64,000 bases of DNA, taken from the IMG/VR virus record IMGVR_UViG_3300030049_000007; one strand, written 5' to 3'. Positions within the stretch are counted from its first letter, which is position 1. Each line of letters opens with the position of its first letter. This DNA is from a virus. Of this stretch, positions 2,871 through 35,198 are shown piece by piece. Under the pieces are notes generated by a model. It did not search any database and had not been told where the DNA came from. It saw only the letters and a list, made by a program, of their open reading frames with translations. The position numbers and the translations under genes are program-made.

Positions 2871-3736
2871 TTAATAATAGATTCTATGGACGTTTATTTT
2901 ATGATGCGGTAAATGGTAAAATAGATTTATCTAATAATATTAATAATCCTTTATATTATAGTAAAATTCTTGAAGTAAGTTGTTTTACAGCAGTACCAAT
3001 TAATGGATGTATAACAATAGTTAATAATAATGCCAATTTAATTAATTCTAAATATAATAATGATATTACCAATTTAACTATTCCATATATTACAGGTATA
3101 ACATTAACTCCAGGGGATATTGGAGAAATAGTTCCAGTAGCAAATATAATTGGTAATTTATATAAAACAACTCAAATATTACCAGGAAATTATCAAGATC
3201 TATTATATGTTGGTCAAGATGGTATTATTACTAATATTAAACCAACTACAGCTAATGGTGACATTTGGTTAATTGTAGTTGGTATAAAAATAGATGATTA
3301 CTCTTTTGTATTTGAACCATCTATTCCAATTAATTTAGTTAGTAGTTTATTTCCTACTCCAGTTCCTATTGTAATTGGTGATGGTGAGAAAGTTACTTTA
3401 TCTCAAGCTATGCCACAATTAACATGTTTTCGTATAGATGAAACAGGAAGGGCCTTTACAATTACAGCTAATGATGTTAATCTTCCTATAGTTGATGGAA
3501 TCACGTTAGAGTCTGGTGGTATTAATCAATCAATAAATGTAGCCAGATTAAAGAATTATTATTATGATTGTGGTGTTAATTTTACTGAAAGTAATATATA
3601 TTATTTAAATAGTAGTGGAGGTTTAACAACTATTAGACCTACGGATACTAGTTATTTAGTTATTATTGGAAGATCTATACCAAATTCAACTAAATTTATT
3701 TTTGATCCACAAATGCCAATTATGTTATCAAATTAG
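2867..3736 (+). CDS. Virion protein with two copies of the decoration-like domain
   Basis: Internal repeat LYVGQDGIIT..P...FVFEPSIP / YYLNSSGGLTT..P...FIFDPQMP. Confidence 0.5.
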   Translation: MINNRFYGRLFYDAVNGKIDLSNNINNPLYYSKILEVSCFTAVPINGCITIVNNNANLINSKYNNDITNLTIPYITGITLTPGDIGEIVPVANIIGNLYKTTQILPGNYQDLLYVGQDGIITNIKPTTANGDIWLIVVGIKIDDYSFVFEPSIPINLVSSLFPTPVPIVIGDGEKVTLSQAMPQLTCFRIDETGRAFTITANDVNLPIVDGITLESGGINQSINVARLKNYYYDCGVNFTESNIYYLNSSGGLTTIRPTDTSYLVIIGRSIPNSTKFIFDPQMPIMLSN

Positions 3737-17670: not shown

Positions 17671-17763
17671 TGGTACCCCCTACAGGATTCGAACCTGTGC
17701 TACTCGCTAATCTGGCGATCCGGGGTTATAAGGCCCGTGTGCTAACCACTACACCAAAGGGGC
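17671..17763 (-). tRNA. tRNA with TAT anticodon (Ile) and long variable arm
   Basis: Loop CT TAT AA; extra arm containing tcgc/gcga stem; GGTTCGAATCC T-arm; CCA. Confidence 0.8.
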
Positions 17764-18158: not shown

Positions 18159-18450
18159 GGGATTTCTCCTCCATGCGGTTGGTTGAAAAGAAAGTTAAGG
18201 TTCATGTTACCTTTAGTGGGTGATCAAACCCATTAAGCCAAGTGTGGTGGCCTACCTTAACATAACATCCTATAGGTTTTCTAAGATGTTGCCTAGATTA
18301 TGCTATTATTATTCCGATAGGCAACGAATCGGTAATAGGCATTGGATTTACCTATACTATATTCTCAACTGCAATACATTCCGCTTAGTAACGGTTTCGT
18401 TGAGACTCGCTAAAGTTTGGTTCTCATACTATACCAAGTATGAAAACGAT

Positions 18451-18931: not shown

Positions 18932-19059
18932 AAAATCCTTTCTTTAAAATTTACCGATATCACTTTTATAATCGGCTGTTACAGAATTAACCGGTAGTGA
19001 TTTCTCGTTGAAATCTACTATCTGCATCTAAAGGTTCATCTCCCCAGATTAACCTTTAT

Positions 19060-19285: not shown

Positions 19286-19586
19286 TGGTGCTCCCAGTGG
19301 GTCACGATCCCACAATCCCTTTCGGGCGTCAGATTTTACTTACCACTATAGTTTTCACTACCAGACATTATCTGTTTGTGGTCTGGACTATCCCTTCACC
19401 ATAACATATCTGTTTTAGGTGGGTGATTATAGTCTCTGCACGTTCCGATTTCTCGGCTTCGCTCAGGATTGGCATCGGCATTATCCGTTAAGCGTTCCCT
19501 GAATTTACACCTTACTAACATACCGTTTCCAATATGCCGACCCATTTTATCGAGTCTGATGCGTATACCAATTCCGCCATGGGAGC
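19286..19586 (-). tRNA. tRNA-Leu(TAA) interrupted by a group I intron
   Basis: Exons 19553-19586 and 19286-19338 join to give tcaga-CT TAA AA-tctga; long variable arm; CCA. Confidence 0.85.
19339..19552 (-). ncRNA. Group I self-splicing intron (IC3-like, 214 nt, no ORF)
   Basis: P AAATTCAGGGAA, Q AATCCTGAGC, R GCAGAGACTA, S GATAGTCC; P1 with U.G at the 5' splice site; terminal G. Confidence 0.9.
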
Positions 19587-19732: not shown

Positions 19733-19806
19733 CCAATTTAGCGCGCTAATAAAAACTATCAGCCCTTGCTTGGCTCCCATTTATTTATAGTAGGGAATCA
19801 CTTTTA
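19733..19806 (-). repeat. Copy 1 of a duplicated structured RNA motif
   Basis: Conserved TAAAAGTGATTCCC..GGGAG, GCAAGG and GCGCTA blocks with covarying stems; second copy about 500 bp away. Confidence 0.7.
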
Positions 19807-20232
19807 AAATACTAGGACTCATTTTGAGGACTAACTTCAGTCAACTCAGCCAAGTCTGATGGCCTATCCCAGCTTAACGTCGGAGCCGATCCCGTTTATT
19901 CTTGGCAATTAAAATACGGTTTCTGGATAACCGAAAACCCAAAGTCCTCATAAGAGGCTATCTGATAAATCCCCAATCTTATCTTTGATTCGATTGGTTC
20001 CCATTACTCCATCTACAGATTGTGACTCTGTTTGATGTTTCTTGGCAATTAGATATGTCTGCGAGACATTATCTAATCGAGCGCTGAATAAGACCGCAAG
20101 GTTGCACCTTGGTATTAGACGGTTTATTCAAATTACGCTGTTATGTATTAACGGGAATTCTAATTACCCGTAGCGTAGAGGTTTGCCTTTGATGCCCTCA
20201 CCGCGCCAACCGCCTAACCGGTTTTAACACTT

Positions 20233-20309
20233 CGGCTAATAGCGCGTCAATTAAATCAATTGACCCTTGCAGCCGCTCCCTCTTATTTGTAAGTGGGGAA
20301 TCACTTTTA
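20233..20309 (-). repeat. Copy 2 of a duplicated structured RNA motif
   Basis: Same conserved blocks and spacing as copy 1. Confidence 0.7.
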
Positions 20310-20459
20310 TTGAGTTGGAGTATTTGCTTTTGCTCCAACCTATCTTCGGGTGATCGTTGCAACGATCAAGCAGTTACCCTATCGGTTTTCTATTATGACC
20401 GAAAACATACCCAATCAATTCTTATCACCGTTCTGATTGGGTAAGAACAGGTGAATGCA

Positions 20460-20597
20460 GGAGACTTCTACATGCTGCCTACGTCAAAGGCAATAAGCCA
20501 ATGATATCAACAGTTTCCGCTGCAAACGGCGAATGATTATAGAACATGTCTTTGCAGGACAAGTCTTTTATCATTCCTTAAACATGTAGAAGTCTCC
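20460..20597 (-). ncRNA. Candidate 138-nt structured RNA closed by a 15-bp stem
   Basis: Perfect inverted repeat GGAGACTTCTACATG / CATGTAGAAGTCTCC; 5' end falls at the predicted TSS of the adjacent promoter. Confidence 0.55.
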
Positions 20598-20612
20598 ATA
20601 TATCTTATAACA
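20594..20612 (-). promoter_or_regulatory. Promoter motif TGTTATAAGATATATGGAG (extended -10)
   Basis: One of three near-identical copies in the window. Confidence 0.7.
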
Positions 20613-20616
20613 GAAT

Positions 20617-21747: not shown

Positions 21748-21837
21748 TGGCGGTAGATGAAAGATTCGAACTTTCGGACCCTTTTAAAGGTCGCCGCATT
21801 AGTAGGGCGGTGCTATAGACCACTCAGCCAATCTACC
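21748..21837 (-). tRNA. tRNA-Ser with ACT anticodon (A34)
   Basis: Class II cloverleaf, long variable arm, G73; loop CT ACT AA. Confidence 0.8.
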
Positions 21838-23710: not shown

Positions 23711-23798
23711 TGGAGCCAAGAACAGGATTCGAACCTGCGATGGATTATTAGTCGGCAGCTTACAAGGCTGTTCCCTTCGACCGCTTGGGCATCTTGGC
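23711..23798 (-). tRNA. tRNA with TGT anticodon (Thr), class II-like D-arm and enlarged variable region
   Basis: cagc-CT TGT AA-gctg; GCC..GGC-U-CCA acceptor; 16-nt variable region. Confidence 0.75.
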
Positions 23799-24300: not shown

Positions 24301-24342
24301 AAAAAATGGTGTTTTTTGCGAACATGTGTTATCATAGAACTT

Positions 24343-25014
24343 ATGTCGAACGAACTGATTCTACAATACCAGAAAGATCCAACGAATAAAGAAATCGAAC
24401 AGAAATTACTCGATATGCATGGATCTTATATTAAAGCCAACATTAATAAATGGGCCGGGATAGTCCCTGATATAATCATTCATTCATATGGTAAGAAATA
24501 TGCGTTAGATGCTTTCAAGACTTATAATCCAATTAAAGGATCCATTAACACCCATCTATATAACAATATCTCCCAACTCTCCAGACTAATCTATCAACAC
24601 CAAAATGCAATTCGCTTACCAGAGCAACAGATACAGTTAATCGGAAAAGTTAATGCATCTAGAGATATTCTAACTGATGAATTGGGCCGTGAGCCAACCA
24701 CAGAAGAAATAGCTGATAATTTATCTTTACCAAAAGCACATATAGCTAAAGTAATTAGAAATCAAAGAGCAGATTTTCTAAATGATTCTGATACAGATAT
24801 GCAACATGCTTATGGTGATCATGATAATGAGATAGGAAATAAGATATTTCAATTTAGACAGACTCTGAATGATACAAGAAAAGATCAATTTGATAGTTTT
24901 ACAGGATATAACAACGTAACTCCATTAAGTCCTCAACAATTTGGTTTAAAATTTAAACTTAAACCTTACGAAGTATCAAGACTTAAAACATTATTTGCTA
25001 AAGGGTTAAAATAA
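24343..25014 (+). CDS. Sigma70-family (FliA/SigB-like) phage sigma factor
   Basis: Region 2-like AFKTYNP..G; IRLP; region 3 ELGREPTTEEIADNL; region 4-like C-terminus; probable leaderless ATG at 24343. Confidence 0.8.
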   Translation: MSNELILQYQKDPTNKEIEQKLLDMHGSYIKANINKWAGIVPDIIIHSYGKKYALDAFKTYNPIKGSINTHLYNNISQLSRLIYQHQNAIRLPEQQIQLIGKVNASRDILTDELGREPTTEEIADNLSLPKAHIAKVIRNQRADFLNDSDTDMQHAYGDHDNEIGNKIFQFRQTLNDTRKDQFDSFTGYNNVTPLSPQQFGLKFKLKPYEVSRLKTLFAKGLK

Positions 25015-29210: not shown

Positions 29211-32200
29211 GTGATGAATCATCAGATAACTAAAGAAAATACTCAACCAATTATTGATGTTATTCATAATAACATTAAAGAGATTTTTCCTTTAACTGTA
29301 GGTAATAAAACTATAGAAGTAAAGAATATAGAGACAGTTGGTTGGGATAAGGCTGATCCAACCAACTATTATGATATTGCTAATGCAAAAGCACACGATA
29401 AGACTTACGGGGTAAATCTAGTCGCAGATGTAGAGTTATCCCAAGATGGTAAAGTAATAGATAAAAAGAAAATGAAATTAGCTACAGCACCGGTAATGGC
29501 TGGTGATGGAACTTTCATTGTTGGTGGATCACAGTATCAAGTTGATCATCAGTTAAGATTGCGGCCCGGTATTTATTCTCGTATTAAACAGAATGGCGAA
29601 ATTGAAGCACATGTAAATCCAAATGGTTTTAAAAATTTACGTTTAGCCGTAGACCCCGCTACAAAGAAATTAACTGTAAATGTAAATCAGGCAAATATTA
29701 ATGCTATTCCAGTATTAAGAATTCTTGGTATTTCTGATACTGAAATTAAAAAATCATTTGGTGATGATGTATATGATGCTAATATTAAAATTCTTGGCAA
29801 GAAGGGTGATGAAGAAATTAAACGTTTCTTTAAATCCGTTCATCCTTATGATGAATTACCGGAGACTAATAAGTTAATAGCAGAACATTTATCTCTCTCA
29901 CTAAGAGAAGCTAAACTAGATCCTAAAGTAACTAAAATTACATTAGGTCAAGAATATGATCACGTTAATGGAAATGCTTTATTAAGAGGATTTCAGAAAG
30001 TAATTAATGTTTCTCGTGGAACTGAACAACCTGATGATCGTGATGCATTAGCATTTAAAACTATTCATTCAGTTGAAGATTTTGTTAATGAACGATTAAA
30101 GAAAAATAAGAAATCAATTCAATTTGCTATTCAGAATAGAATGCGTAAAAATGATAAACTTGATCAGATTATGAATTCTGGTCATATTAATCAGCATGTA
30201 TTCTCATTTTTTAATTCTGCTGCACTTTCAGAAATTCCTTCACAGATTAATCCATTATCAGTAATTAATAGTTCATTTAAAACTACTATTACTGGTGAAG
30301 GTGGTATTGAAAATGCAGAATCAATTATGCCAGAATCTCAAGCCTTACATCCTAGTCATTTAGGATATCTTGATCCAATCAATACTCCTGAGTCAAAAAA
30401 GATTGGTGTTACTTTAAATTTAGCTATTGGAACTACTAAAAAAGGAAATGAACTTCTCAGTAAATTTAGAAACATAAAAACTGGTAAAGAAGAAGATATT
30501 TCAACTATCGATGCTTATCATAAAGTTATTGCTTTACCCGGTCAAGAATTAAAAGGTCAAGTAACTGCTATTAAACATGGCAAACAAGTAGAAGTTGATG
30601 CTAGTGAAGTTACTCATGAGCTTCCTAATGCCTATTCGGCCTTTACTATGGCTTCTCAGGCATTACCTGCAATGAATCATAATCAGGGTAATAGAGCTGG
30701 AATGGCCTCTAGACATATTAATCAGGCTATCTCACTTAAACATCGTGAAGCACCTTTAGTTCAAGTTCAATCACCACTTTCCAAAGACATGAGTACTGAA
30801 GAATTTTTTGGTAAAAAATTCCAAATTGCGCTTCATGCTAGAAATGAAGATGGAATTATTCAAGATATTACTAAATCACATATTATCTTTAAAGGTGATA
30901 GTGGTAAGGTATATGAATATCCTATTTTTAATAATTTTGATCTACAAAATAAATCTTATTTACATCATGAAATTGAAAATCTTAAAATAGGCGATAGATT
31001 TAAAAAGGGTGATCTTATTGCCGATTCTAATTTTAGTAAAGGTGGCGTATTGTCACTCGGAACTAATCTTCGAACTGCTTATATGCCATGGAAAGGTTTA
31101 AATTTTGAAGATGGCATTGTAGTATCCGAATCAGCAGCTAAAAAATTAACTTCAAATCATTTATTTCAAGATAATATCGATAAAGATAATGATTCGGTAT
31201 TAGTTAATAAAAGAAAATTTGTAACCTTATATCCATCTAAATATACAAAAGCTCAATTAGATAAAATTAGTGATAATGGAATAGTAAAGGAAGAAGTTAC
31301 TTTACAACCAGGGGATCCTTATGCTTTAGTATTACATAAGGCTCAGGGGACTCAAGAAGATCTTATGTTAAATAGATTACATAAATCTCTTGTACAACCT
31401 TATAAAGATATGTCTAAAACTTGGGAACAGTTAACTCCCGGAAAAATTACTAGATCAGTAGAAAATACCAGAAATGTAAAGATTCATGCTAAATATGAAG
31501 CACCTGCAATTATAGGTGATAAACTTGCATTAAGACATGGTAATAAGGGAGTCATTACCTCAATAGTTGCAGATAAAGAAATGCCTACTACTAAAGAGGG
31601 TAGATCTACCGAGGTATTAATTAGTCCCTTAAGTATTGTTACTCGTATGAGTCTTGGTCAAATGTTGGAAAATTCTGCAAGTAAAATTGCAGAAAAAACT
31701 GGTAAACCTTATATTATTGAAAATTTTTCAAAAGATAATCAATTAGAAAAAATTAAAAATGATTTAAAGAAACATAATATATCGGATACGGAAGAATTAT
31801 TTGATGAACATGGAAATTCTTTTGGACAAGTGTTAGTAGGAAGTCCATTAATTGAAAAATTATTTAAGACTGCAAAAGCTAACGTTTCCGCTAGAGACAG
31901 TGGTGCCTATGATATAGATAATAAGCCAATTAAGGGTGGTGAGGATGGTTCGAAGGCTATCGACCAATTGACTCTTTATGGCTTATTATCGCACGGTGCG
32001 CGAGGCATTATTAATGAGGTTAGCACGGTCAAGGGTGATGGAAACGCCCAGTTTTGGCAGAATCTCCAAAATGGCTTACCCATACCTAAACCTCAAGTTC
32101 CATTTGTATATAAGAAATTTGAAGCAATGCTTCATGCTGCTGGTATTAATGTTAGACATGATGGTTCTAGAAAAATATTATTACCTCTAATTGATTCTCA

Positions 32201-35198
32201 AATAGATGAATTAGCTGGAGATAACGAAATTGAATCTTTTGGTATGTTAGATCATAATTTTGAACCAATCAAAGATGGGTTGTTTGATCGTCATACAACT
32301 GGTGGTTCAAATGGTGATAAATGGGCAAAAATTACATTAGCTCATCCATTAGTTAATCCAATGTATGAAAATGCTGTCAAAACCATCTTAGGTCTTAAGG
32401 ACTCTGAATTTAAAACAATTATAAAATTGGAAGGTGGTCATGATAAAATTAAAGGAATGTTGGCTAATCTCAATGTTCATGAGCAGATTGATAATCTTAC
32501 GGCAGGTATCAAGACTGCGCCGAAAACTAAAAAAGATAAGCTGGTTAAACAACTTAAAATTTTCAAGTCACTTGATTCACTCAAGCTCTCTCCCGTTAAC
32601 GCTTATATTACTTCCGTGGTTCCGGTTGTCCCTCCTACTTTCAGACCTATCTTTGAAATTCCCGGTGGGCATGTACAAACACATAGTTTAAATAATTTAT
32701 ATAGAGATTTGGGTTTAATTAATAATACTATCAAAGAGCTTGGACGTACTCCTGAATTGACAGATGCACTTTATAATTCTCTGGGTGCAATTCAGGGTGT
32801 AAATAATCCAATTACTAAACAAAATGAAATTAAAGGTGTTAAGGGTGCCATTCAAATTATCACAGGATCTGGTTCACCTAAATATGGGTTCTTTCAAAAT
32901 AAAACATTACGTAAACAACAGGATTTATCAGGAAGAGCAACTGCTGTATTAAATAATAATCTTAATATGGATCAAATTGCTATTCCTGAAAAAATTGCTA
33001 AAGTAATTTACAAGCCATTTGCTATTAAAGAATTAATTAAAAATGGTTATAGTTATCAAGAATCTGTAGATCATATAGATCATTTAGATAATATTGGAAA
33101 AAAGGCTGTTCAAGCTGCGATGTCAGATCGTCCAGTGTTAATGAATCGCGCTCCATCATTACATAAATTTTCAATTATGGCATTTCAGCCAACATTAACT
33201 AAAAATCTTTCTATTGAAGTTCCAGGGCTTATCGTTAAACCTTTTTCATTAGATTTTGATGGAGATACATTAGTTCTGCATGTGCCAGCTACCGAAAAAG
33301 CACGTAAAGAATCTTTTGGATTAATGCCAAGTAAGAATTTATATAATCCTAGAATGCGTACTTTAAATTATGCTCCAGATCAGGGAGCTATTCTAGGATT
33401 GCATTTACTTTCTCAAACTGAAGAAGGTTTAGTTAAGATAAATGATTTATTTCCAAAAGATATTTTGCCTATTGGTTCAAAAATTACTAAAAAGATGGTG
33501 GATAAAATACTTGCAAATTTAGCAGAAAAGTATCCAGAAAAATATAATGAAATTACTACCAAATTAAAACAAATGGGCGATACTTATGCTACTAAAGCAG
33601 GATTTTCTTTATCCTTAGCAGATCTTCCTAATAATTCTAAAGAAGTTAATAAAGAATATAAATCTGCTGTAGGTTTATTAAAATCAAAATCATTAAGCGA
33701 TGAAATTAAACTAAACGCTTTACTTAAAGCTGATAAATTTATTAAAGATAATGCATTAAATGACAAAACTAATAATTTTGTGACTATTGTAGCTTCTGGT
33801 TCTAGAGGATCGTCTGAACAGATAAAACAGATGTTATTTGCCCCTGGAGTTATGAGTGATCATAATGGAGATCCATTACTTCATCCAGTTTTAACTAATT
33901 ATTCACAAGGTATGCCCTTTAACGATTATTGGACTACTTTATATTCTGCACGTAAAGCTGCTTTAGATAAACAGTTAATGACTGCTAAACCTGGCGCTTT
34001 AAATAAAGAGGTAGTAAATACTACAATGAGTATTGTAATATCGGAAAATGATTGTGGAACTAAATTAGGTATTCCTATGAATACCGATGATAATAATCTT
34101 GTAGGAAGATATTTAACGAATGGCACATTAGTGAATAAAAGTAATATAGAATCTATACGTGATAAACATAAAGAAGTAATAGTTAGATCACCTACCACCT
34201 GTAGGGCATCACATGGGATTTGTCAGAAATGCTTTGGTATTGATGAATATGGTAAACTTCCAGATATTGGTCATAATGTTGGAATTAAATCAGCTCAAGC
34301 AGCAACAGAACCTTTAACTCAGGCAGCTATGAAAACTTTCCATATGGGTGGAACGGTTTCTGGTGGTGGTGGTGTATTTGGTGGTTTTGAACATGTCAAT
34401 AATTTTCTCGTTTCTCCAGAAACTTTTAAAGATCGAGCTACGTTATCAAAATTAGATGGAAAGATTACAAGTATAACTCCAGGGTCTGCCGGTGGTTTCC
34501 ATGTTAATGTAAATGAACAAGATCATTTTATAACTCCTGGCTCTGGTAGTCTTAAAGTTAAAGAAGGTGATAAAGTAAAGAAAGGCGATTTATTAAATAA
34601 TGGTATTCCTCATCCTAAAGAAGCTATACATCTTTTAGGTGAATTAGGTGGGCTTCATAAAATTACAGAGACTCTTCATAATATTTATAAAAATTCTGGC
34701 ATTTCTATTGATAGAAGAAATTTAGAGACAATTGTTAGAGGTATGACAGGATTTGGAATAGTAGAAGATGAAGGAACTCATAAACATTTCGTAAAGGGAG
34801 ATGTAGTACCTTTAAGTCAAATTTATGAATTTAATACAACAACTAATAAATCCTATAAATTACCTTTAAATGATGCTTTTGGAAAAAGTTTAGATGAAAA
34901 TATCGGATCTTTTAAAATTGGAAATATAGTTAATTCTAATATGATTAAATCTTTACAAAAAACACATAAAGAAATTACTGTAAAGGAAAATCCTGTAACT
35001 TATGAACGTACCTTACTGGGAGTACAGCAAGCACCACTTAAGTCTCACGACTGGGCTAATCAGCTTGCTTTCCGATATCTCAAACGTGGTTTGCAGGAAG
35101 GATCAACTTATGGTTATTCTTCAGATGTTCATGGATATTCTCCTATAGCTCCATTTGTTACTGGTCAAATGGAAGATGGACCAGAAGGAAGATATTAA
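29211..35198 (+). CDS. Single-chain fused beta-beta' DNA-directed RNA polymerase
   Basis: Beta motifs GTFIVGG, TPES..IG, GLNFEDG, GDKLALRHGNKG; beta' motifs DLSGR, NRAPSLH, DFDGD, SGSRG, CGT..C..C..C, EPLTQ..MKTFHMGG. Confidence 0.95.
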   Translation: MMNHQITKENTQPIIDVIHNNIKEIFPLTVGNKTIEVKNIETVGWDKADPTNYYDIANAKAHDKTYGVNLVADVELSQDGKVIDKKKMKLATAPVMAGDGTFIVGGSQYQVDHQLRLRPGIYSRIKQNGEIEAHVNPNGFKNLRLAVDPATKKLTVNVNQANINAIPVLRILGISDTEIKKSFGDDVYDANIKILGKKGDEEIKRFFKSVHPYDELPETNKLIAEHLSLSLREAKLDPKVTKITLGQEYDHVNGNALLRGFQKVINVSRGTEQPDDRDALAFKTIHSVEDFVNERLKKNKKSIQFAIQNRMRKNDKLDQIMNSGHINQHVFSFFNSAALSEIPSQINPLSVINSSFKTTITGEGGIENAESIMPESQALHPSHLGYLDPINTPESKKIGVTLNLAIGTTKKGNELLSKFRNIKTGKEEDISTIDAYHKVIALPGQELKGQVTAIKHGKQVEVDASEVTHELPNAYSAFTMASQALPAMNHNQGNRAGMASRHINQAISLKHREAPLVQVQSPLSKDMSTEEFFGKKFQIALHARNEDGIIQDITKSHIIFKGDSGKVYEYPIFNNFDLQNKSYLHHEIENLKIGDRFKKGDLIADSNFSKGGVLSLGTNLRTAYMPWKGLNFEDGIVVSESAAKKLTSNHLFQDNIDKDNDSVLVNKRKFVTLYPSKYTKAQLDKISDNGIVKEEVTLQPGDPYALVLHKAQGTQEDLMLNRLHKSLVQPYKDMSKTWEQLTPGKITRSVENTRNVKIHAKYEAPAIIGDKLALRHGNKGVITSIVADKEMPTTKEGRSTEVLISPLSIVTRMSLGQMLENSASKIAEKTGKPYIIENFSKDNQLEKIKNDLKKHNISDTEELFDEHGNSFGQVLVGSPLIEKLFKTAKANVSARDSGAYDIDNKPIKGGEDGSKAIDQLTLYGLLSHGARGIINEVSTVKGDGNAQFWQNLQNGLPIPKPQVPFVYKKFEAMLHAAGINVRHDGSRKILLPLIDSQIDELAGDNEIESFGMLDHNFEPIKDGLFDRHTTGGSNGDKWAKITLAHPLVNPMYENAVKTILGLKDSEFKTIIKLEGGHDKIKGMLANLNVHEQIDNLTAGIKTAPKTKKDKLVKQLKIFKSLDSLKLSPVNAYITSVVPVVPPTFRPIFEIPGGHVQTHSLNNLYRDLGLINNTIKELGRTPELTDALYNSLGAIQGVNNPITKQNEIKGVKGAIQIITGSGSPKYGFFQNKTLRKQQDLSGRATAVLNNNLNMDQIAIPEKIAKVIYKPFAIKELIKNGYSYQESVDHIDHLDNIGKKAVQAAMSDRPVLMNRAPSLHKFSIMAFQPTLTKNLSIEVPGLIVKPFSLDFDGDTLVLHVPATEKARKESFGLMPSKNLYNPRMRTLNYAPDQGAILGLHLLSQTEEGLVKINDLFPKDILPIGSKITKKMVDKILANLAEKYPEKYNEITTKLKQMGDTYATKAGFSLSLADLPNNSKEVNKEYKSAVGLLKSKSLSDEIKLNALLKADKFIKDNALNDKTNNFVTIVASGSRGSSEQIKQMLFAPGVMSDHNGDPLLHPVLTNYSQGMPFNDYWTTLYSARKAALDKQLMTAKPGALNKEVVNTTMSIVISENDCGTKLGIPMNTDDNNLVGRYLTNGTLVNKSNIESIRDKHKEVIVRSPTTCRASHGICQKCFGIDEYGKLPDIGHNVGIKSAQAATEPLTQAAMKTFHMGGTVSGGGGVFGGFEHVNNFLVSPETFKDRATLSKLDGKITSITPGSAGGFHVNVNEQDHFITPGSGSLKVKEGDKVKKGDLLNNGIPHPKEAIHLLGELGGLHKITETLHNIYKNSGISIDRRNLETIVRGMTGFGIVEDEGTHKHFVKGDVVPLSQIYEFNTTTNKSYKLPLNDAFGKSLDENIGSFKIGNIVNSNMIKSLQKTHKEITVKENPVTYERTLLGVQQAPLKSHDWANQLAFRYLKRGLQEGSTYGYSSDVHGYSPIAPFVTGQMEDGPEGRY

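Follow-up and report, generated by a model that had tools for sequence, protein, structure and literature searches.

A duplicated phage RNA module with a twister-sister-like internal loop, a candidate self-cleaving ribozyme

The window, a 64,000-nt stretch of phage DNA (IMGVR_UViG_3300030049_000007), contains two copies of a compact RNA module of approximately 75 nt per copy, named M1 here, whose internal loop matches the catalytic loop of twister-sister and lantern ribozymes. M1 belongs to a family that is conserved in several unrelated environmental phages; at least 12 distinct copies were found in all (2 in the window and at least 10 from metagenomic phage contigs), stemming from at least four kinds of phage contig. 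The likeliest reading, to which we give about an even chance, is that M1 is a variant self-cleaving ribozyme of the twister-sister-like type with a new architecture. The window is low in GC (about 31%) and comes from a phage with tail, ligase, helicase and ribonucleotide-reductase genes and a 13-tRNA array on the minus strand. Comparison with deposited phages (INPHARED) gave no near match, and the distant matches were confined to an intron and tRNA.

Structure of the module

The two minus-strand copies that the first-pass annotation had placed about 500 nt apart were located at 20308-20233 (copy A) and 19805-19733 (copy B), with a spacing of 503 nt. Both have the same order of parts from 5' to 3': an A-rich lead, GUGA, a hairpin (H1), the first strand of P1, the 5' strand of an L1-like loop, the P2 hairpin, the 3' strand of the loop and P1'. 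In copy A, GUGA lies at 20304-20301 and is followed by H1, with UUCCC at 20300-20296, a 15-nt loop and GGGAG at 20280-20276, so that H1 and GUGA together span 20276..20304. P1 is formed by CGGCU (20275-20271) and AGCCG (20237-20233), and encloses the L1-like loop at 20238..20270, made of GCAAGG (20270-20265) and GCGCUAUU (20245-20238). The P2 hairpin of copy A (20264-20246) has 7 bp, GUCAAUU/AAUUGAC, and a 5-nt loop. In copy B, GUGA is found at 19801-19798, the H1 strands UUCCC and GGGAG at 19797-19793 and 19778-19774, and P1/P1' at 19773-19770 (CCAA) and 19736-19733 (UUGG). Its L1-like loop (19737..19769) consists of GCAAGG at 19769-19764 and GCGCUAAA at 19744-19737, and its P2 hairpin (19763-19745) has 7 bp, GCUGAUA/UAUUAGC, with one G.U pair and a 5-nt loop. 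The H1 loop is 14-15 nt long in the two window copies, and the 3' side of L1 in both is GCGCUA plus two bases.

The first-pass annotation had also noted that the stems differ with pairing kept and that the linkers are invariant. P1 and P2 are indeed wholly different in sequence between copies A and B and paired in both. The window has two occurrences of the linker pattern GCAAGG-N15-25-GCGCTA, where shuffles predict 0.01. The 13-mer AAAAGTGATTCCC has exact matches in the window only at copies A and B. Small open reading frames over the copies have no conserved frame common to A and B, and the conservation between the blocks does not come from coding because the indel in P1 shifts the reading frame. 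Minimum free energy folds of the copies reproduce the proposed stems; the folding z-score is weak for copy B alone, and the support for the structure therefore comes from comparison between sequences and not from folding energy.

Homologues and covariation

Building a covariance model and searching phage metagenomes, one of the checks proposed with the first annotation, was productive. A sigma-like protein encoded at 24316-25014, 4 kb from the module, led to related contigs (L-numbers label the related, metagenomic or IMG/VR phage contigs carrying or compared for M1). The syntenic gap between tRNA-Arg(UCU) and tRNA-Leu(UAA) holds M1 in L118, L120, L127 and L129, and the copies in L134 and L135 are identical to that in L118. 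L262, also found via related contigs, carries M1 12 nt 3' of an untyped tRNA. A DNA-pattern search of metagenomes added L149 and L139 among the matches listed, and a DNA-pattern search of IMG/VR added L273, L274 and L278. The module was absent from the related contigs L130, L131, L263-L265, L267 and L271, and one relative in which the whole 112-kb contig was searched has a single copy. Two narrower patterns were uninformative. The pattern GGGAG..GCAAGG..GCGCTA gave 117 matches, none of which has the fold, and these were set aside as chance; a collection pattern requiring GCAAGG returned no relatives because these carry GCUAGG or GCCAGG.

Covariance model R1, built from copy A and L127, scored copy A at 110.9 bits, copy B, on which it was not trained, at 55.8 bits and the other copies at 18-62 bits. 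Model R2 was built from nine copies and gave 91.1 bits for copy A and 78.9 bits for copy B. L273, L274 and L278, which were not in its training set, scored 55-61 bits. These three were picked on the 5' part of the module only, yet in each of them a P2 hairpin, GCGCUCAA and a P1' complementary to P1 are also present.

Across the 12 distinct copies, 98.9% of cells form standard pairs, and changes on both sides are seen in all four modelled P1 pairs and in six of the seven pairs of the P2 hairpin. The covariation score is 0.684 compared with 0.175 in shuffles, with 0.684 reached in 0 of 500 shuffles, and sliding the partners by 1-3 columns brings pairing down to 42-59%. The G.U pair that had been read as support for the minus strand is present in the copy B hairpin and agrees with a U.G pair in H1 of all 12 copies. 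These H1 and P2 wobble pairs (G.U or U.G in P2) would be A.C mismatches on the opposite strand, and the minus strand is thus the functional one. The earlier proposal of a functional module acting as a structured minus-strand RNA is in this way backed by covariation in 12 homologues.

The invariant bases of M1 are GUGAUUCCC, GGGAG, GC-N-AGGG and GCGCU, and the base immediately 5' of GCGCU is C in 11 of the 12 copies. In H1, GUGAUUCCC and GGGAG are identical throughout (12/12) and the five pairs never vary, an invariance across the family that goes beyond what the first annotation described; the H1 loop is loosely conserved (YAC...A-rich). P2 hairpins range from 17 to 34 nt across copies and their loops vary, with a GAAA tetraloop at the tip in L278 and GCUAAUAUAG common to L149, L262 and L274. 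Given this variation in length and tip, P2 behaves like a peripheral stem.

Searches for contacts between the hairpins were unproductive. A pseudoknot pairing the H1 loop with the 3' tail was rejected, since most shuffles reach its best helices (4-6 bp); inspection found no consistent register for kissing of the H1 and P2 loops, and a k-turn reading of GUGA/GGGAG was rejected since its register has no tandem G.A pairs.

The internal loop compared with twister-sister and lantern ribozymes

Twister-sister ribozymes were reportedly found bioinformatically in microbial sequence by Weinberg et al. in 2015. Their three- or four-way junction and conserved SL4 loop are needed for fast cleavage. Minimal twister-sister-like cores have, to our knowledge, so far come only from selection on human DNA. 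The twister-sister L1 loop consists of G5 C6 A7 A8 G9 opposite G59 C60 U61 C62^A63 U64, with A8-U61 and G9-C60 pairs, G59 in a base triple, A7 extruded and cleavage between C62 and A63 (PMC5660989). The twister-sister structures 5Y87 and 5T5A are cited in PMC11620745. Deep mutation of the human LINE-1 and OR4K15 ribozymes reduced the active element to two stems around an L1-like loop, GCUAG/GCUC^AA in LINE-1-rbz and GCCAG/GCUC^AA in OR4K15-rbz, and such minimal lantern cores cleave in vitro (PMC11620745). In LINE-1-core, C10A is inactive and A11U has partial activity only (PMC11620745); minimal cores are fragile, and many natural lantern look-alikes do not cleave. In twister-sister itself, A63U abolishes activity, A7U is like wild type, and cleavage is retained with any substitution at C62 (C62A, C62U or C62G).

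The likeness to loop L1 noted in the first-pass annotation holds against both published loops. GCNAG stands opposite GCU in all 12 copies, and the conserved twister-sister L1 residues are present between P1 and P2, with the position of A63 (+1) varying. Leaving variants at +1 and +2 aside, the loop across copies is GC(A/U/C)AG opposite GCU(C/A)AA. The 5' strand is GCAAG in both window copies, GCUAG in L118, L120, L129, L139, L273, L274 and L278, and GCCAG in L127, L149 and L262. The 3' strand is GCU-CAA in L139, L273, L274 and L278, GCU-AAA in copy B, L149, L262 and L129, GCU-AUU in copy A, GCU-AUA in L127 and GCU-ACU in L118 and L120. The LINE-1-rbz loop is thus matched exactly, with no mismatch, in L139, L273, L274 and L278. 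The loops of the sister pair L149 and L274 differ only at -1 (A versus C), which fixes the register of the loop. In this register, the variable third base of M1 corresponds to the extruded A7 and its -1 base (C in 4/12, A in 8/12, both window copies included) to C62, and on alignment of the loops the natural variation of M1 falls where twister-sister tolerates change. At +1, eight of the 12 copies, copy B among them, have A. Copy A and L127 have U in this place and L118 and L120 have C, and the copies with U or C keep all other invariant bases.

A generic lantern descriptor (P1 of 4 bp, GCNAG, hairpin, GCUNAW, P1') has one match in the window, at copy B, compared with 0.04 expected per shuffled window. 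The same descriptor also matches about 8 unrelated chance sites in the 2.2 Mb of fetched loci and is therefore weak evidence by itself; what carries weight is that the same 11 loop bases recur in 12 copies, set between stems that covary.

M1 shares with twister-sister the order P1 - L1 - P2, the 5' strand GCAAG (window copies), the 3' strand GCU-N-A-N, a freely variable third base in the extruded position, tolerated variation at -1 and a P1 of 4-5 bp. It differs in that neither SL4 nor a three- or four-way junction is present beyond P2; as the first annotation had remarked of the multi-way junction, P2 is a simple capped hairpin in every copy, here of variable length. No SL4-type loop docking into L1 (contacts T1 and T2) was seen in the 12 copies. 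M1 instead has GUGA and the invariant H1 on the P1 side, where H1 abuts P1 without a spacer, and its loop is flanked by an extra invariant G in the 5' strand and GC in the 3' strand. Searches of the whole window and of 8-kb, 2-kb and 95-104-nt slices with Rfam, also among the checks first proposed, gave no match to the module at the gathering score or at E up to 10; the unmatched models include twister-sister, twister, pistol, hatchet, hammerhead, HDV-like, GOLLD, ROOL, tRNA and RNase P, and for twister-sister (RF02681) this holds at E up to 10 on the 8-kb, 2-kb and 95-104-nt slices. With junction and SL4 missing, H1 and extra bases present and A at +1 not universal, M1 falls outside the definition of the twister-sister family.

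The lantern ribozymes are closer in form, having two stems and a loop of 5 nt and 6 nt with no junction. OR4K15-rbz has the same topology as M1, with P1 open, P2 capped and the 5-nt strand first, and shares the 5' strand GCCAG with L127, L149 and L262. The loops of copy B (GCAAG/GCUAAA) and copy A (GCAAG/GCUAUU) compare with GC(U/C)AG/GCUCAA in lanterns, from which M1 also differs in often having A in place of C at -1. The human elements, discovered by selection, lack evolutionary conservation and a known function, whereas M1 is conserved with covariation across phages and carries the invariant H1.

Genomic context

Beyond the first annotation, copy A was found to be the 5' domain of a conserved non-coding RNA of approximately 400 nt at 19915..20308 on the minus strand, defined by alignment with L127:4597-5019 (-), L149:1993-2420 (+) and L129:7091-7536 (-). 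Its conserved blocks are a hairpin plus UAAUACAUAACAGC; ACAACAGCC; a hairpin with the loop CUCGCA (the CUCGCAAA loop) followed by UUGCCA; GGGAAC-stem-AAUCAAAGAUAA-stem-GGGGA; and GGACUUUGGGUU with a terminal hairpin at 19933-19917. Further covarying stems lie inside this RNA in the window, L127, L129 and L149, and it has no Rfam match. A prophage search by its 3' blocks gave five bacterial sites, all of them unrelated coding-like sequence with no Rfam family, and these were rejected. The RNA stops four bases 5' of tRNA-Leu in L127 and has no tRNA nearby in L149; the module order within it differs in L118 and L120. A possible closing helix P0 pairs NNNGU, before GA, with ACNNN (AAAGU with ACUUU in GGACUUUGGG); its strands adjoin each other in L118 and L120 (CUUGU/ACAAG) and are separated by about 400 nt in the long RNAs, with one compensatory change only and two mismatches. 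Like GOLLD and ROOL, as described in bioRxiv 10.1101/2024.12.08.627333, the RNA is long, multi-stemmed, phage-borne and located beside tRNA genes, but it is shorter, and the Rfam GOLLD and ROOL models do not match at E up to 10.

Copy B stands alone between this RNA and an intron-bearing tRNA-Leu(UAA), 150 nt 5' of that gene. The tRNA-Leu(UAA), the next gene 3' of copy B (19286..19586, minus strand), contains a group I intron recognized by Rfam Intron_gpI at 19562-19361 (47.2 bits, E 2e-10, just below the gathering score of 50), and the flanks of the intron have BLAST matches to phage tRNA-Leu and tRNA-Arg. The same tRNA-Leu is intronless in L118, L120, L127 and L129. Upstream of the ncRNA lies an extended -10-like promoter, TTCTGTTATAAGATATATGGAGA (20593..20615, minus strand; repeat family D17), with a near-identical twin that heads the tRNA array (24303-24281, minus strand), the motif being TGTTATAAG/T..ATATATGGAGA. 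A simple sigma-70 scan did not call the promoter at 20615-20593, and the same motif is found upstream of M1 or the ncRNA in L127, L118 and L129; phages of this clade may use this repeated motif as their promoter type. The window also encodes a fused RNA polymerase of 1995 aa with beta and beta-prime domains (Rpb2 and Rpb1 Pfam in homologues) at 29211-35198 (+), and the sigma-like protein upstream of it, at 24316-25014 (+), has sigma-70 region 3; both are conserved in all related contigs.

M1 heads an ncRNA or tRNA transcript in the window, L127, L118, L120 and L129. In L278, it lies four bases 3' of the stop codon of an open reading frame and about 200 nt 5' of tRNA-Gly, and in L273 between two open reading frames, after the stop codon of one and directly before the ribosome binding site of the other. 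In L139:956-3459 (-), an unrelated phage-like contig, it lies three bases 5' of the ribosome binding site of a gene for a MoxR-type AAA ATPase, which is followed by a vWA-domain gene. Among the contigs examined (GC 38-57%), M1 is thus found at unit boundaries with no constant neighbouring gene, a position more in keeping with a self-contained processing element than with regulation of a single gene. HDV-like theta ribozymes adjoin phage tRNAs. M1 is likewise small and structured, lies in a phage tRNA array and would process an untranslated transcript of several genes. Its fold is unrelated: a nested double pseudoknot is absent, and the HDV-like Rfam models do not match.

Several other repeats and RNA genes were observed in these regions. 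A third exact TAAAAGTGAT is located at 18959-18968 (-), 28 nt before the open reading frame 18931-18536, which has an HNH-like motif pattern and no Pfam match, and a one-mismatch copy, TAAAATTGAT, lies at 19604-19595 just before tRNA-Leu. Promoter, processing signal and chance are all conceivable explanations for the TAAAAGTGAT repeats. Two spacer repeats recur on the minus strand, UAGGCCAYCASACUUGGCU at 19848-19881 and 18236-18269 and UAGAAAACCKAUAGG at 20378-20392 and 18269-18283, and suggest that pieces of ncRNA have been shuffled at about 18180-18300. In L120, ARAGORN places a tmRNA gene inside the tRNA array (2894-3301, minus strand). Unusual tRNAs are present on the minus strand of the window at 17671-17763 (Ile(UAU) with a long extra arm), 21748-21837 (Ser with anticodon ACU) and 23711-23798 (Thr(UGU) with a long-arm body and a Tyr-type D-arm).

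Proposed ribozyme and competing explanations

We infer catalysis, a cut site and a role for H1. The 3' two-thirds of M1 (P1, loop and P2) would carry the catalytic core of twister-sister and lantern ribozymes, and the 5' third, with the invariant H1 abutting P1, would fill the role of junction and SL4. The loop would fold with the A-U and G-C pairs and the G base triple, the variable third nucleotide being extruded, and the N(-1)-A(+1) step in GCU-N^A-A would be splayed, allowing the 2'-OH of N(-1) to attack with Mg2+. The products would be a 5' piece of approximately 70 nt with a 2',3'-cyclic phosphate and a downstream RNA with a 5'-OH. M1 could in this manner act as a built-in processing site that frees a downstream ncRNA, tRNA precursor or mRNA from upstream RNA. 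More tentatively, M1 can be viewed as a natural lantern-topology ribozyme in which H1 would supply the stabilising contact, and which might serve as a widespread punctuating element in environmental-phage transcripts, set between open reading frames, tRNAs and the ~400-nt ncRNA.

The two window copies differ in how well they fit this ribozyme reading. Copy B appears to fit the active pattern, with a predicted cut between A19739 (-1) and A19738 (+1) based on loop comparison. In copy A, the equivalent of the scissile bond lies between 20240 and 20239. Its +1 base is U, the change that abolishes twister-sister activity as A63U, and for this reason copy A probably cuts slowly or not at all, being retained as a core for the folding of the ~400-nt RNA. 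The fact that +1 varies while the other bases are invariant suggests that the selected function does not in every case depend on chemistry of the twister-sister type.

This variation also supports the main competing explanation, in which M1 is a non-catalytic structured module whose L1-like fold and H1 bind a protein or another part of the ncRNA. The +1 base is A, U or C while about 26 other bases are invariant even in predicted-dead copies, and an H1 that is invariant in sequence without covarying is what a base-specific contact would be expected to produce. No ribozyme model matches M1, and in copy A, L127, L149 and L129 it is the 5' domain of a larger conserved RNA. The distribution of M1 points the other way, as contigs that are unrelated (GC 38-57%) and have no common neighbour make a phage-specific partner protein unlikely, a host partner would need to be widespread, and M1 is also found alone outside the large ncRNA (copy B, L139 and L273). 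The 11-base identity to a catalytic loop, together with the natural variants, would be hard to explain without common function. On balance we consider a non-catalytic role possible but less likely than a ribozyme.

The position of M1 bears on a second explanation, that it is a cis-acting transcription element promoting read-through of the hairpins in the tRNA/ncRNA array. The put RNAs of phage HK022 are nascent two-hairpin RNAs that modify polymerase. M1 likewise has two abutting hairpins with conserved unpaired bases, and in the RNA polymerase-encoding clade it lies in the tRNA-Arg/tRNA-Leu gap, heading an untranslated transcript and shortly 3' of the extended -10-like promoter; these phages also encode their own fused polymerase and sigma-like protein. 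A put-like function is nevertheless improbable, given that M1 lies after open reading frames or in short mRNA leaders of unrelated phages (L139, L273 and L278), that the promoter lies anywhere between about 45 and about 290 nt away, that it has no link to terminators (the only terminator-like hairpins of the region are weak) and that the loop identity to twister-sister would be left unexplained.

A further reading, which is very improbable, sees M1 as a degenerate element derived from a tRNA or mimicking one, in which H1 would stand for a class II D-arm and P1 for an anticodon stem and which would act as a decoy or processing signal. In its favour, GUGA-UU-CCC-loop-GGG-A looks like the acceptor/D-arm region of Tyr-type tRNAs, a published pre-tRNA substrate contains the 9-mer GUGAUUCCC, the window tRNA-Thr has a CCC...GGG-A D-arm and M1 lies within tRNA arrays. 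Against it, the H1 loop has no D-loop GG, M1 has no T arm, the Rfam tRNA model (E up to 10) and ARAGORN find nothing, M1 also occurs away from tRNAs (L139 and L149), and the D-arm reading from the 9-mer match was rejected as a coincidence of form.

Significance

If the ribozyme reading is correct, M1 would be the first evolutionarily conserved lantern-type ribozyme; it would link the human twister-sister-like elements to microbial twister-sister and establish that the lantern form is used in nature. H1 would then represent a new solution for stabilising an active site of the twister-sister type. The natural +1 variants (A, U and C) within an otherwise invariant module provide a ready-made contrast for asking whether catalysis or fold is under selection. 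M1 also marks the 5' end of an undescribed phage ncRNA of approximately 400 nt beside tRNA-Leu. For the phages themselves, a self-cleaving M1 would add a processing element to tRNA/ncRNA operons, whose maturation is poorly understood.
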